DNA of 64,000 nt from the sequence record OL362041.1, one strand, 5' to 3'. Below the pieces are notes generated by a model. The model saw only the letters and a list, made by a program, of their open reading frames with translations. It searched no databases and was not told where the DNA came from. The DNA is from Escherichia phage vB_Eco_OMNI12. Of the stretch, positions 54,021-64,000 are shown piece by piece (position 1 is the stretch's first letter; each line of letters begins with the position of its first letter). Position numbers and translations under genes: made by a program.

Positions 54021-54028
54021 TATAAATA
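54021..54028 (+). promoter_or_regulatory. late promoter TATAAATA for gene 34
   Basis: Exact TATAAATA 35 nt upstream of start. Confidence 0.65.
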
Positions 54029-57940: not shown

Positions 57941-59056
57941 ATGGAAAAATTTATGGCAGAGTTTGGACAAGGATATGTCCAAACGCCATTTTTATCGGAA
58001 AGCAATTCAGTAAGATATAAAATAAGCATAGCGGGTTCTTGCCCGCTTTCTACTGCGGGGCCATATGTTAAATTTCAGGATAATCCCGTTGGAAATCAAA
58101 CATTTAGTGCAGGTCTTCATTTAAGAGTTTTTGACCCTTCTACGGGAGCATTAGTTGATAGCAAGTCATATGCTTTTTCTGCTTCAAACAATACAACATC
58201 TGCCGCTTTTGTCAGTTTCATGAATTCTTTGTCAAACAATAGACTTGTTGCTATATTAACTAGCGGAAAGGTTAATTTTCCTCCTGAAGTGGTATCTTGG
58301 TTAAGGGGAGCAGGAACTTCAGTTTTTCCATCAGATTCAGTATTGTCAAGATTTGACGTATCATATGCTGCTTTTTATACTTCTTCTAAAAGAGCTATTG
58401 CATTAGAGCATGTTAAACTAAGTAATAGAAAAAGCACAGATGATTATCAAACTATTTTAGATGTTGTATTTGATAGTTTAGAAGACGTCGGAGCGACAGG
58501 ATTTCCAAAAAGAACTTATGAAAGTGTCGAGCAATTCATGTCAGCAGTTGGTGGAACTAATAACGAAATTGCGCGATTGCCAACTTCAGCTGCTATAAGT
58601 AAACTTTCTGACTATAATTTAATTCCTGGTGATGTTCTTTATCTTAAAGCACAGTTATATGCTGATGCTGATTTACTTGATCTTGGAACTACAAACATAT
58701 CCATTCGTTTTTATGATGCATCAAATGGATATATTTCCTCTACCCAAGCTGAGTTTACTGGGCAAGCTGGGTCTTGGGAATTAAAAGAAGACTATGTAGT
58801 TGTTCCTGAAAATGCAGTAGGATTTACGATATATGCACAAAGAACTGCCCAAGCAGGTCAAGGCGGCATGAGAAATTTAAGCTTTTCTGAAGTATCAAGA
58901 AATGGCGGCATTTCAAAACCTGCCGAATTTGGCGTCAACGGTATTCGCGTTAATTATGTCTGCGAATCGGCTTCACCTCCAGATATAATGGTACTTCCTA
59001 CACAAGCCTCTTCTAAAAATGGCAAAGTGTTTGGACAGGAATTTAGAGAAGTTTAA
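57941..59056 (+). CDS. 35: long tail fibre hinge protein
   Basis: 371 aa; order 34-35-36-37. Confidence 0.85.
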   Translation: MEKFMAEFGQGYVQTPFLSESNSVRYKISIAGSCPLSTAGPYVKFQDNPVGNQTFSAGLHLRVFDPSTGALVDSKSYAFSASNNTTSAAFVSFMNSLSNNRLVAILTSGKVNFPPEVVSWLRGAGTSVFPSDSVLSRFDVSYAAFYTSSKRAIALEHVKLSNRKSTDDYQTILDVVFDSLEDVGATGFPKRTYESVEQFMSAVGGTNNEIARLPTSAAISKLSDYNLIPGDVLYLKAQLYADADLLDLGTTNISIRFYDASNGYISSTQAEFTGQAGSWELKEDYVVVPENAVGFTIYAQRTAQAGQGGMRNLSFSEVSRNGGISKPAEFGVNGIRVNYVCESASPPDIMVLPTQASSKNGKVFGQEFREV

Positions 59057-59087: not shown

Positions 59088-59095
59088 TATAAATA
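59088..59095 (+). promoter_or_regulatory. late promoter TATAAATA for gene 36
   Basis: Exact TATAAATA. Confidence 0.65.
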
Positions 59096-59118: not shown

Positions 59119-59769
59119 ATGGCTGATTTAAAAGTAGGTTCAACTGTAGGTGGATCTGTCATTTGGCATCAAGGAAATTTTCCATTGAATTCAGCCGGTG
59201 ACGATGTACTCTACAAATCATTTAAAATATATTCAGAATATAATAAACCGCAGGCAGCTGATAACGATTTCGTTTCTAAAGCTAATGGTGGTACTTACGC
59301 CGGTCCAATTACTATTAATTACGGGGTAAATAGTTATCTTCAATTAAGTAATAATGAAACCCCTATCCGAATTCGTTCTGGTGGCGGCACTGGTAATACT
59401 CTTGTAGTTGGCGGCTCTTCCGGTGGTATTAGTTTTAGACCTGCAGGTAGTGAAATCACTACTGGACAAATTACTATTACGCCAGAAGGTTTGACAACAT
59501 TTACCAGGGCTGTAACGGCTCCATCGGTAACTGTTACATCTACTCCTTCCGCAGCATCTGATGTTACTCGCAAAGATTATGTTGATGGAGCAATAAATAC
59601 TGTTACAGCAAATGCAAACTCTAGGGTATTACGCTCTGGAGACACTATGACAGGAAATTTAACTGCGCCAAACCTTTTTTCACAGAATCCTGCATCTCAA
59701 CCTTCACACGTTCCACGATTTGACCAAATCGTAATTAAGGATTCTGTTCAAGATTTCGGCTATTATTAA
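59119..59769 (+). CDS. 36: long tail fibre distal connector
   Basis: 216 aa; late promoter and terminator hairpin upstream. Confidence 0.85.
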
Positions 59770-59777
59770 GAGGACTT

Positions 59778-62744
59778 ATGGCTACTTTAAAACAAATACA
59801 ATTTAAAAGAAGCAAAACTGCAGGAGCACGTCCTGCCGCTTCAGTATTAGCCGAAGGTGAATTGGCTATAAACTTAAAAGATAAAACAATTTTCACAAAA
59901 GATGACTCAGGTAGTGTTATAGAATTAGGTTTAAAATATGGAGGAACTATAAATGGGTCTTTAGAGGTTACAGAAAATATAACTGGAACTTTAATTGGAA
60001 ATTCTAGCACAGCTACTAAATTGCAAACACCTAGGAAAATTAATGGTATATCTTTTGATGGGTCAAAGGACATTACCTTAACTCCATCTGACATAAATGT
60101 CAATAGCACAACATTTATAAAAAATAATGGCGAATTACCTACTGATGCTAATTTAGATACGTATGGGCCCATTGAAGAATATCTTGGTGTTTGGTCGAAA
60201 TCTACTTCAACAAATGCGCAACCAGCAAATAAATTCCCAGAAGAAAATGCCGTAGGTGTACTAGAAGTGTTTGTGGCCGGCCAATTTGCTGGCACTCAGC
60301 GTTATACTGTAAGATCTGGTAACGTCTATATTCGTTCCTTATCTGCTAAATGGAATGGCGTCGATGGTCCATGGGGTGTGTGGCGTAATGTTCAAGCGTC
60401 AACTCGTCCACTTTCACAAACGATTGACCTTGATAGCTTGGGAGAATTAGAACATTGCGGCTTATGGCGAAACAGTTCAAGCGCAATCGCATCATTTGAT
60501 CGCCATTATCCAGAAGAAGGATCAGCCGCACAAGGATTTTTAGAAATATTTGAAGGTGGTTTATACACGAGAACTCAGCGTTATACTACCCGAATGGGTG
60601 TTGTATATGTTCGTTGTCTTGCTGGTGCATGGGATCCAGAAGCTCCGAATTGGGGACCGTGGCAACAAGTAGGTATGGTTACTCCCAACACATTCTATGA
60701 CGGGGATCTTAATAATTTTCGTTCTCCTGGCTTATATAATATTTTAGGCACTGATGCCGTTATTAACCGTCCAGTTGCAGAAGGTGTTCCGGTTGAGATG
60801 ACCGGATTGCTTGAGGTTAAACAGCGTGCTTCCGGTGCCGCTATTTTCCAACGTTTCACTACCGCAGGAACGGGTGCAACTACGCGATCTCGCGTGTTTG
60901 AACGTGCGATGACAAATAACATCTGGGGAAATTGGTACGAAGTATATACGTCCTATTCTATGCCGATCACTCTGGGTATGGGTGGTGTTAAATCTCAATT
61001 AGCGGAGCTAGACTGGCAAACCTTTGATTTTGTCCCTGGTAGTATGTTTAGTGTTCCTTTGAACAAAATAAAGAATATGCCAGCAAATATGGATTGGGGG
61101 ACGATTGACGGAAACTTGGTTATGTTTTCTGTCGGTCCTAGCGAACATACCGGAACGGGTCGAACTGTTCAAGTGTGGCGCGGTACTGTATCTCAGGCGA
61201 ACTATCGTTATTTCGTTGTTCGTATCGCTGGTAATCCAGGAAGTAGGACTAATACTTGTCGTCGTGTTGTTGTGGAAGATGGTCGCCACACATGGACAGC
61301 ACAGCAAGATTTTAATGGTGCTGTCAACTTTGGTGGTTCGACAACTTTTAAGTCCACTACAACTTTTAACACAGAAGTTAAATTCCGTTCATCCAATGCA
61401 TTTAAAATGTATGGCGGTAATTTTGGCACAATTTTCCGTAATGATGGTGAAAGTCTTTATATTCTTTCCACCGACGAAGATGATCAAGATGGAAACTTTA
61501 ATACAAATAGACCTTTCCGTTATGAATTAAGAACTGGTGATGTTACTTTAGGTGGTACTAGTGGTGCTAACGTTTTAAAATTAAAACGTGATTCTCTCAC
61601 CGCATTTTTTGGTGGTGATATTAACATGAAAGGCTTGATGACTTTTGACGCCGGACGTTTAGGATCACGAGATTATTTTAAATTTAACCATTGGGGTGAT
61701 AGTAATAATGCGCGCGATAACATTATTCAGTTAGAAGACAGCAAAGGCGTTCATTTTTCCACTGAACGTACTTTAGCGACAGGTGCAATTAAGACTAAAT
61801 TTTTTGGTGAAATTGAATCCGATGGTAAATTGATTATTAAACGTCCGGGCGATTCTATTGTATTATCAACAACTGCTAGTAATTCTTTGCATATTCGCGG
61901 TGATATAGACGGGACTGGTAACTGGTATATTGGTAAAGGTGGTGCTGATAATGGATTAGCGTTCTATAGTTATGCTACTAATGCTGGTGTATACATTACA
62001 AACGCAGGAGATATCTCGCTAAGTCCAAAGGGTGCCGAAATGGCTCAGGTCAATAACGTTCGATTATATGTTCATGGTGAACGTTGGACCGCTAGTCAAC
62101 CAGGTGATTGGGGCAGTCAGTGGCAAGTGGAAGCGCCAATATTCGTCGATCATGGTTATGTTGGACCAGATAGCTATTATCCAATTATTAAAGGAAGAAG
62201 TGTAGTCACCAATCAAGGGTTTGTAACTGCCGTCGATCTTGGTATTCGTCGTGTCCCTAACAATTGGGGGCAAGCAATTATTCGTGTTGGATCTGCAGAG
62301 GCATCGCCAGCGGCTGGACACCCTAACGCGGTATTTGAATTTCATTACGACGGTACTTTCTATTCTCCTGGTAATGGTAACTTTAACGATGTGTATATTC
62401 GTTCCGATGGTCGTCTTAAGATTAATAAAAAAGAGCTAGAAAACGGAGCACTTGAAAAAGTATGTCGACTGAAAGTTTATACATACGATAAGGTTAAGTC
62501 TATTAAAGATCGTAGTGTTATTAAACGTGAAGTTGGTATTATTGCTCAGGATCTTGAAAAAGAATTATCAGAAGCTGTATCTAAAGTTGAAGTTGATGGA
62601 TCTGATGTTCTGACAATTTCTAACTCCGCTGTAAATGCTCTTTTAATTAAGGCTATCCAAGAAATGAGCGAAGAAATTAAAGAATTGAAAACGCCTTTCT
62701 TCACTAAAATTGCTCGCAAAATTGGTAAATACTTTAAATTCTAA
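59778..62744 (+). CDS. 37: long tail fibre distal subunit with C-terminal intramolecular-chaperone-like domain
   Basis: 988 aa; C-terminus SDGRLK ... [11 protein letters not shown] resembles the S74-type chaperone domain of other fibre proteins. Confidence 0.85.
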
Positions 62745-62750
62745 TAACAA

Positions 62751-62763
62751 GGGGCATTGCCCC
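62751..62763 (+). promoter_or_regulatory. hairpin between genes 37 and 38 adjacent to the gene 38 SD
   Basis: GGGG-CATTG-CCCC followed by TTT GGAG. Confidence 0.5.
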
Positions 62764-62777
62764 TTTGGAGATAAATT

Positions 62778-63578
62778 ATGGCAGTAGTTGGTGTTCCTGG
62801 TTGGATTGGAAGTTCATCCGTAAATGAAACAGGGCAACGATGGATGAGTCAAGCGGCTGGTCAATTAAGATTGGGTGTTCCTTGCTGGATGAGTCAATTT
62901 GCAGGTCGCTCGCGAGAAATTATTCACACGCTTGGAGCAGACCATAACTTCAATGGTCAATGGTTCCGAGATAGATGTTTTGAGGCAGGTAGTGCACCTA
63001 TAGTGTTTAATATTACAGGTGATTTAGTATCATATTCTAAAGATGTTCCTTTATTCTTCATGTACGGGGATACGCCTAATGAATATGTTGTTCTTAATAT
63101 TCATGGCGGTGTTCATATGTGGGGTCGTGGTGGTAATGGTGGATACACTCACTCAGGAGGCGACGGTAACGGTACACAAGGCGGTCATGTTATTCAAAAT
63201 GATATCGGTGGACGGCTTCGTATTTGGAACTACGGTGTTATAGCTGCTGGCGGTGGCGGCGGTGGTGGTATTGCATATCGTCCACACTCAGGGGCAAACT
63301 GGCAAGATATCGGTGGCGGTGGTGGTCGACCTTTCGGTGCCGCGGGCGGTGGCGGTTATTCCGGTGGTGCTGCTTCGTATGAAGGTCCGGGTGGTGGTTA
63401 TGACTATGGTAACGCACACTCCGGCGCAGGTGGTAATGCTGGTGCTGCTGGTCAGAATGCATGGTCTGACGGCGGTAAAGTTCTTAAAGTTGGTGTTGGT
63501 GGTGCGTCTGGTCATGCAGTGTTTGGGTCTTCTCCAACTTGGGGTGCTGTTGGAACAATTTACGGACCAAGAGTATAA
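62778..63578 (+). CDS. 38: T2-type receptor-recognising adhesin gp38 with glycine-rich motifs
   Basis: 266 aa; poly-Gly motifs ([25 protein letters not shown]) separating short variable segments. Confidence 0.8.
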
Positions 63579-63608
63579 TGTGAATAAATACCCTTAAAAG
63601 GAGGGTCT

Positions 63609-64000
63609 ATGGCAGCACCTAGAATATCATTTTCGCCCTCTGATATTCTGTTTGGTGTTCTAGATCGCTTGTTCAAAGATAACGCTACCGGGAAGGTTCT
63701 TGCTTCCCGAGTAGCTGTCGTAATTCTTTTATTTATGATGGCGATTGTTTGGTATAGGGGAGATAGTTTCTTTGAGTACTATAAGCAATCAAAGTATGAA
63801 ACATACAGTGAAATTATTGAAAAGGAAAGAAATGCACGCTTTGAATCTGTCGCCCTGGAACAACTCCAGATAGTTCATATATCATCTGAGGCAGACTTTA
63901 GTGCGGTGTATTCTTTCCGCCCTAAAAACTTAAACTATTTTGTTGATATTATAGCATATGAAGGAAAATTACCTTCAACAATAAGTGAAAAATCACTTGG
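63609..64000 (+). CDS. t: holin t, N-terminal part (3' end outside window)
   Basis: Hand-translated MAAPRISFSPSDILFGVLDRLFKDNATGKVLASRVAVVILLF matches T4 holin; frame open to window end. Confidence 0.85.
   Translation, partial: MAAPRISFSPSDILFGVLDRLFKDNATGKVLASRVAVVILLFMMAIVWYRGDSFFEYYKQSKYETYSEIIEKERNARFESVALEQLQIVHISSEADFSAVYSFRPKNLNYFVDIIAYEGKLPSTISEKSL

Follow-up and report, generated by a model that had tools for sequence, protein, structure and literature searches.

The window analyzed here is a 64,000-nucleotide stretch of Escherichia phage vB_Eco_OMNI12 (sequence record OL362041.1), which as a whole belongs to a Tequatrovirus; over 24 kb it shares approximately 96% identity with G29, G4500, and DalCa. 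Near its 3′ end the genes run in the order g35, g36, g37, g38, t, an arrangement that matches T2, T6, S16, and AR1. The gene under study, gene 38, occupies positions 62778-63578 of the plus strand (ATG start; TAA stop, included in the coordinates) and encodes a protein of 266 amino acids, gp38. GGAG lies 8 nucleotides 5′ of the start codon, and a gap of 33 nucleotides separates the gene from the 988 codons of g37. The neighborhood comprises the following features:

57941-59056: g35, upstream of g36
59088-59095, plus strand: T4-type late-promoter motif TATAAATA, an exact match just upstream of g36
59119-59769: g36, upstream of g37
59778-62744, plus strand: gene 37, the 988-aa distal long-tail-fiber subunit, predicted to bear gp38 on its tip (Pfam Gp34_trimer and Peptidase_S74; synteny with T2, T6, S16, and AR1)
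62403-62741, plus strand: intramolecular chaperone domain of gp37, residues 876-988 (Peptidase_S74, PF13884, E = 1e-10 over residues 876-934)
62778-63578, plus strand: gene 38
63609-64000, plus strand: 5′ part of gene t (holin), which runs out of the window (Pfam Phage_holin_T, 1.1e-63; position as in T2, T6, T4, and S16)

A single exact copy of the late-promoter motif stands just ahead of g36, and no further copy occurs between this site and gene 38, nor between g37 and g38; this distribution suggests that gene 38 is probably transcribed late together with g36 and g37, from a start near the motif at 59088. The motif occurs 18 times in the window, against 8.5 copies expected by chance, and a second exact copy, at 54021-54028, lies where a promoter of g34 would be expected. 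Between the g37 stop and the g38 Shine-Dalgarno sequence lies a perfect, GC-rich 7-bp hairpin (62749-62765, AAGGGGC-ATT-GCCCCTT). It was considered as a terminator and rejected, as it has no U-tract and does not significantly exceed shuffled sequence in stability (z = -1.4); it may serve in RNA stability or processing. Farther upstream, gp35, the hinge connector, matches the Pfam family ILEI (interleukin-like EMT inducer; 8e-08, residues 58-112), an unexpected family name for a phage fiber protein.

The C-terminal domain of gp37 contains the motif SDGRLK at S876, a Ser-...-Lys cleavage motif, and its last 112 amino acids are predicted, by analogy with such domains, to be removed autoproteolytically once the trimer has folded, which would free the tip for gp38. 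C-terminal processing of roughly 120 residues has been reported for gp37 of T2, in agreement with the 112 amino acids predicted to be cut here. A sequence search of gp37 against the S16 gp37 tip chains in 6F45 yielded no match at E up to 0.001; the similarity found was confined to gp34-like trimerization repeats.

The composition of gp38 sets it apart from the other long open reading frames of the window. Glycine accounts for 68 of the 266 residues (25.6%), while the runner-up reaches 11.1% when all 41 ORFs with 150 or more amino acids in the six frames of the whole window are compared. The glycines are concentrated in the second part of the protein, where they make up 35.8% of residues 116-266, versus 12% of residues 1-115, and they occur as runs at G158-G164 (seven), G179-G183 (five), G190-G193 (four), and G205-G207 (three), in addition to ten GG pairs. 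The corresponding GGN codons lift the local GC fraction to 0.52-0.57, compared with 0.365 window-wide. In an alignment of 76 homologs, from which per-column entropy was calculated, the glycine blocks show little or no variation, and variability peaks in the columns of the intervening segments; entropy averages 2.56 bits over residues 164-178 versus 0.44 bits over residues 179-189. The preliminary description of this gene, made from the letters alone, had spoken of poly-Gly motifs separating short variable segments, and this pattern is present in gene 38 far beyond what chance would produce.

A region of this kind could in principle be a low-complexity tract or a frame artefact with no functional coding feature, and ORFs of 44-114 amino acids do also exist on the opposite strand and in other frames of the GGN-rich DNA. 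The reading frame of gene 38 is, however, kept end to end in 788 records, spanning hundreds of phages; synonymous differences far exceed non-synonymous ones (15 nucleotide and four amino-acid differences from Ox2; 43 and four from Sf21); and the protein matches two solved structures in sequence. These observations refute the artefact, to which we assign a vanishingly small probability. A search of the GGN-rich region for DNA tandem repeats able to cause slippage found just a trivial 7-nucleotide, two-copy repeat at 62950-62964, outside the glycine-rich motifs.

To delimit motifs and segments, as the preliminary description had proposed, gp38 was aligned with its counterparts from Ox2, T2, T6, AR1 (PP01-like), S16, M1, FL08, AV119, FL18, and MX01. 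The alignment recovers glycine-rich motifs (GRMs), five in number and conserved, in fixed order, with four hypervariable segments (HVSs) between them and a conserved C-terminal motif last. This five-GRM, four-HVS scheme is that of Trojet et al. (2011; PMC3157838), and it is also used in PMC12032242 and in a 2026 receptor-prediction preprint (bioRxiv 10.64898/2026.04.02.716166). The residue map that results, with conservation taken from the 76 homologs and strands from an AlphaFold2 (AF2) model, is as follows:

62778-62903, plus strand: residues 1-42, N-terminal attachment domain (Pfam Gp38_N), which would dock gp38 on the gp37 trimer's tip, a role taken from the S16 complex 6F45 following PMC12032242
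62916-63122, plus strand: residues 47-115, first part of the beta-helix domain (AF2 strands at pLDDT 92-96; aligns to PP01 and S16 gp38)
63123-63143, plus strand: residues 116-122, GRM1, GRGGNGG (G116, R117, G118, G119, and G121 invariant)
63144-63179, plus strand: residues 123-134, HVS1 (variable columns; near-identical to FL08 and AV119)
63180-63248, plus strand: residues 135-157, a conserved rung of the beta-helix (entropy averaging 0.65 bits over residues 137-163; G135, G136, I139, N141, G144, L147, I149, N151, G153, and I155 invariant)
63249-63269, plus strand: residues 158-164, GRM2, GGGGGGG (G160-G162 invariant; G158, G159, and G163 at least 90% conserved)
63270-63311, plus strand: residues 165-178, HVS2 (the most variable block, with the 2.56 bits given above for residues 164-178)
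63312-63338, plus strand: residues 179-187, GRM3, GGGGGRPFG (G182, G183, P185, and G187 invariant; 0.44 bits over residues 179-189)
63339-63422, plus strand: residues 188-215, HVS3, which holds A188 (variable columns except G190 and G205)
63423-63452, plus strand: residues 216-225, GRM4, GAGGNAGAAG (G216, G218, G219, G222, and G225 at least 90% conserved)
63453-63497, plus strand: residues 226-240, HVS4 (mean entropy 2.04 bits over residues 225-242)
63498-63527, plus strand: residues 241-250, GRM5 (G242, G245, A247, V248, and G250 at least 90% conserved)
63528-63575, plus strand: residues 251-266, C-terminal strands completing the beta-helix (P253, W255, G259, I261, Y262, and G263 at least 90% conserved; AF2 strands at 254-257 and 260-262)

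Profile searches place gp38 in the family of phage tail fiber adhesins over its whole length. Pfam GP38 (PF05268, "Phage tail fibre adhesin Gp38") matches residues 47-266 across the full profile (2.1e-68; 230.9 bits against a cut-off of 25), Gp38_N (PF21721) matches residues 1-42 (3.2e-19; 69.1 bits against a cut-off of 25), and PHROGs returns phrog_2056, "tail fiber protein; host specificity" (1.4e-110). By sequence, phmmer matches gp38 to only two PDB entries, both of them solved gp38 adhesins: 9V85, the receptor-binding domain of PP01 gp38 (1.5e-65), and 6F45_D, the S16 gp38 chain of the gp37-gp38 tip complex (1.3e-43), the latter aligning end to end, residues 5-263 against 5-246. The AF2 model of gp38, a prediction built from the 76 homologs, has a pLDDT of 86.8 and a pTM of 0.79, with beta strands in residues 48-115, 139-178, and 234-262. 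Its glycine-rich region has block means of 77-97, mostly above 88, and is without DSSP helix or strand, as would be expected for polyglycine-II (PGII) helices. The attachment domain is modeled at a pLDDT of 36-67, and weakly over residues 1-14; low values of this kind are expected where a segment folds on its partner. A Foldseek search of the PDB with this model returned 9V85 (E = 4.8e-26; target-normalized TM 0.87) and 6F45_D (E = 7.6e-21; target-normalized TM 0.82), and nothing else under E = 3. The predicted fold thus matches the layout of attachment domain, beta-helix, and PGII sandwich seen in T2/T6-type adhesins.

The same layout unites gp38 with relatives that use other receptors. PP01 and S16 gp38, whose receptors are OmpC and Salmonella OmpC, have the same three-part fold, with an identity in structural alignment of 60% for the PP01 receptor-binding domain and 41% for S16 (in sequence alignment, 64% for the PP01-like AR1 and 48% for S16); their HVS loops, however, are completely different from those of the present protein, in line with the difference in receptor. 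T2 and T6 gp38, adhesins for OmpF/FadL and Tsx, respectively, belong to the same family and share the GRM scaffold and the gene order, but are 48% (T2) and 73% (T6) identical and have other HVSs.

Gene 38 of T4 also occupies the slot between g37 and t, and several database records call close homologs of the present protein "distal long tail fiber assembly catalyst." One alternative is that gp38 is a T4-type chaperone, a non-structural protein that assists gp37 assembly and stays outside the virion while the gp37 tip binds the receptor. The best BLASTP alignment with T4 gp38 (NC_000866, NP_049864, 183 aa), however, has an E of 3.6 and covers seven residues, so that the full-length match which the preliminary description had named as its refutation is absent. 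T4 gp38 belongs to no Pfam family, whereas the gp38 proteins of the window, Ox2, and T2 all carry both GP38 and Gp38_N; the fold of gp38 matches solved adhesins exclusively; and gp37 here ends in an S74 self-chaperone, not in a T4-like needle tip. The "assembly catalyst" labels are annotation carried over from T4, as the note in NC_000866 itself says. The chaperone is thus ruled out at the level of sequence and fold, and we regard it as extremely improbable.

The preliminary description had identified gp38 as an adhesin of the T2/T6 type with glycine-rich motifs, and the Pfam matches, the solved structures, the fold, and the GRM and HVS alignments all agree with it. Protein family, domain layout, fold, synteny, and near-identity to Ox2 and ESCO58 are direct observations. 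For the explanation as a whole, that gene 38 encodes a T2/T6/Ox2-type gp38 adhesin that caps the long tail fiber and has OmpA as its predicted receptor, we estimate a probability of roughly 0.93.

Gp38 would thus act as the monomeric receptor-binding adhesin of a T2/T6/Ox2-type Tequatrovirus. Gene 38 would be transcribed late, along with g36 and g37, and gp37 would trimerize aided by the S74-type chaperone domain at its C-terminus, which would then cut itself off at S876. The N-terminal 42 residues of gp38 could then dock on the exposed tip; the location of gp38 there in the virion, and its role in adsorption, are suggested by analogy with Ox2, T2, T6, and S16. Beyond the attachment domain, residues 47-157 and 251-266 would form a small beta-helix, and the five GRMs would pack as PGII helices into a compact sandwich from which the four HVSs would protrude as loops at the distal end. 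In the proposed mechanism, these loops would bind extracellular loops of an outer-membrane protein, predicted to be OmpA for this allele.

That the variable segments of such adhesins set receptor specificity, as the preliminary description had assumed, is established in the literature (PMC3157838; PMC12032242; bioRxiv 10.64898/2026.04.02.716166). OmpA is the receptor of Ox2 and K3 (PMC12032242; PMC3157838). The "type 1" phages FL08 and AV119 need ompA and infect strains with all eight OmpA loop variants tested (PMC12032242). In that study, R165-V-H-S-G-A170 of HVS2 is modeled as the main OmpA contact of type-1 adhesins; the counterpart in the present gp38 is R168-P-H-S-G-A173, and HVS2 as a whole reads IAYRVHSGANWKDI in FL08. 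HVS1, HVS2, and HVS4 are near-identical to those of FL08 and AV119, and HVS3 is closely similar with a few more substitutions. Given this near-identity to the HVSs of Ox2 and of FL08 and AV119, OmpA is predicted as the receptor of this allele. The resemblance to the type-1 proteins (80-81% identity, with the R-x-H-S-G-A of HVS2 present) is not complete: they differ in their N-terminal attachment subtype (MAVTG--PW versus MAVVGVPGW) and by HVS substitutions, for example at P169 (versus V) and at E202/G203 (versus V/A).

The closest characterized protein is Ox2 gp38 (X05675.1 / CAA29158.1; Montag et al. 1987), likewise of 266 amino acids and identical at 262 of them (98.5%), with the same GRMs, the same flanking genes (the gp37 C-terminus and t), and the same expected receptor. 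The four differences, written from the window to Ox2, are N174K in HVS2, A188G and G193R in HVS3, and A257V in the C-terminus. A comparison across the clade (n = 10: Ox2, DalCa, ph0021, ACG-C40, VEc20, Sf21, Nami, G29, ECML-134, and OE5505) distinguishes among them. At 174 and 193 the window carries N and G, the residues common to FL08, AV119, and the nine clade members other than Ox2. At 257, A and V alternate within the clade. A188 alone is shared by this allele and ESCO58 but by none of the ten clade members, which all have G188; A is also found in T6 and M1, and P in FL08 and AV119. Neither the window nor any of the nine other members has K174 or R193, and in the 1987 record of Ox2 these two residues may reflect adaptation of the laboratory strain or differences in early sequencing.

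Within this clade, up to 73 nucleotide differences translate into no more than 12 amino-acid changes, most of which fall in the beta-helix and the N-terminus. HVS1 and the GRMs show no change, save at one GRM4 site; in HVS2, as in HVS4, a single site varies. The many nucleotide and few amino-acid changes, together with HVSs that are almost unchanged, indicate purifying selection on a working receptor-binding surface, and not diversification.

It is also conceivable that gp38 is an adhesin whose receptor is not OmpA but, for example, OmpC, OmpX, Tsx, or LPS, by virtue of its differences from Ox2, A188 above all. Single substitutions in HVSs can switch the receptor: they have done so in RB51/RB68, Q206L changes OmpF to OmpW (both bioRxiv 10.64898/2026.04.02.716166), and mutations in the hypervariable regions of Ox2 altered specificity (Drexler 1989, 1991, as cited in PMC12892980). 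A188, directly after GRM3 and found in none of the ten clade members, could therefore matter in principle. Yet nearly every clade member has identical HVS1, HVS2, and HVS4, which also closely match those of the OmpA-dependent FL08 and AV119; site 188, the first after GRM3, tolerates variation, as its residues in T6, M1, FL08, and AV119 attest; and N174 and G193 move toward the clade consensus, not away from it. On this evidence a different receptor seems quite unlikely. There is a similarly slim chance that A188 alters which OmpA loop variants, or which secondary receptors, the adhesin accepts, so that its host range would be unlike that of Ox2, DalCa, and Sf21; were this the case, the fiber might, together with an unusually divergent gp37 shaft, behave unlike those of its relatives. 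Ox2 itself is reported to depend on more than a single host factor to become fully infective (Trojet et al., PMC3157838).

OmpA stands as the predicted receptor on the strength of the HVS comparison with Ox2, FL08, and AV119. A search for published receptor data on the closest relatives, Sf21 and ESCO58, found none; the papers on ESCO58 give host range only, describing a Tequatrovirus that lyses 31% of the tested APEC (avian-pathogenic E. coli) strains. The OmpA phage LHE83 was considered as a close relative and set aside, its genome having 40% GC and Bp7 as its closest relative.

The preliminary description had also named gene 38 as the likeliest place to find host-range novelty in the window, and this expectation finds no support. 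By megablast, the gene is 100% identical in DNA over 801 nucleotides to that of Escherichia phage vB_EcoM_ESCO58, 98.8% identical to that of DalCa, and 98.1% identical to the 1987 Ox2 record (X05675), with 393 phage records matched in all. At the protein level, five records reach 99% identity or more and another 30 fall at 95-99%, approximately 35 at 95% or above, and the four HVSs are essentially invariant over the ten clade phages. Literature and databases already contain this allele along with its architecture, fold, and likely receptor, and, judged by these alignments, few stretches toward the window's 3′ end are less novel than gene 38.

It is gp37 that diverges more from public sequences. 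Its best full-length match is Sf21 at 93.5%, and positions 60500-61450 in the middle of the gene, the most divergent stretch near gene 38, have KMB43 as their best public phage match at 93.6%. Identity to ESCO58 (OM386666.1, UPW39839.1) is unbroken from approximately position 62333 to 64000, but mid-gp37 (60533-61432) is 67-78% identical (96% in one 100-nucleotide bin), and the 10.7 kb upstream are 97.2% identical; on these values the possibility that the window is ESCO58 itself was rejected. Mid-gp37 looks like a recombination mosaic with junctions near 61430 and 62330, and the pattern of identity across gp37 and gene 38 is the well-known mosaicism of the tail-fiber locus.

For applied purposes, a predictable primary receptor of this kind (OmpA; type 1, with a broader range of OmpA variants) helps in the design of phage cocktails and in anticipating resistance through loss of ompA. 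Gene 38 raises no new question, and the main value of the analysis lies in a correct annotation and in a warning about how close homologs are labeled. Their GenBank labels are inconsistent, and include "tail protein and peptidase," "distal long tail fiber assembly catalyst," and "hypothetical protein." One copy, 99.2% identical to the present protein, comes from a record that bears the name Pseudomonas phage PsgM02F; for a coliphage adhesin of the OmpA type such a host is implausible.
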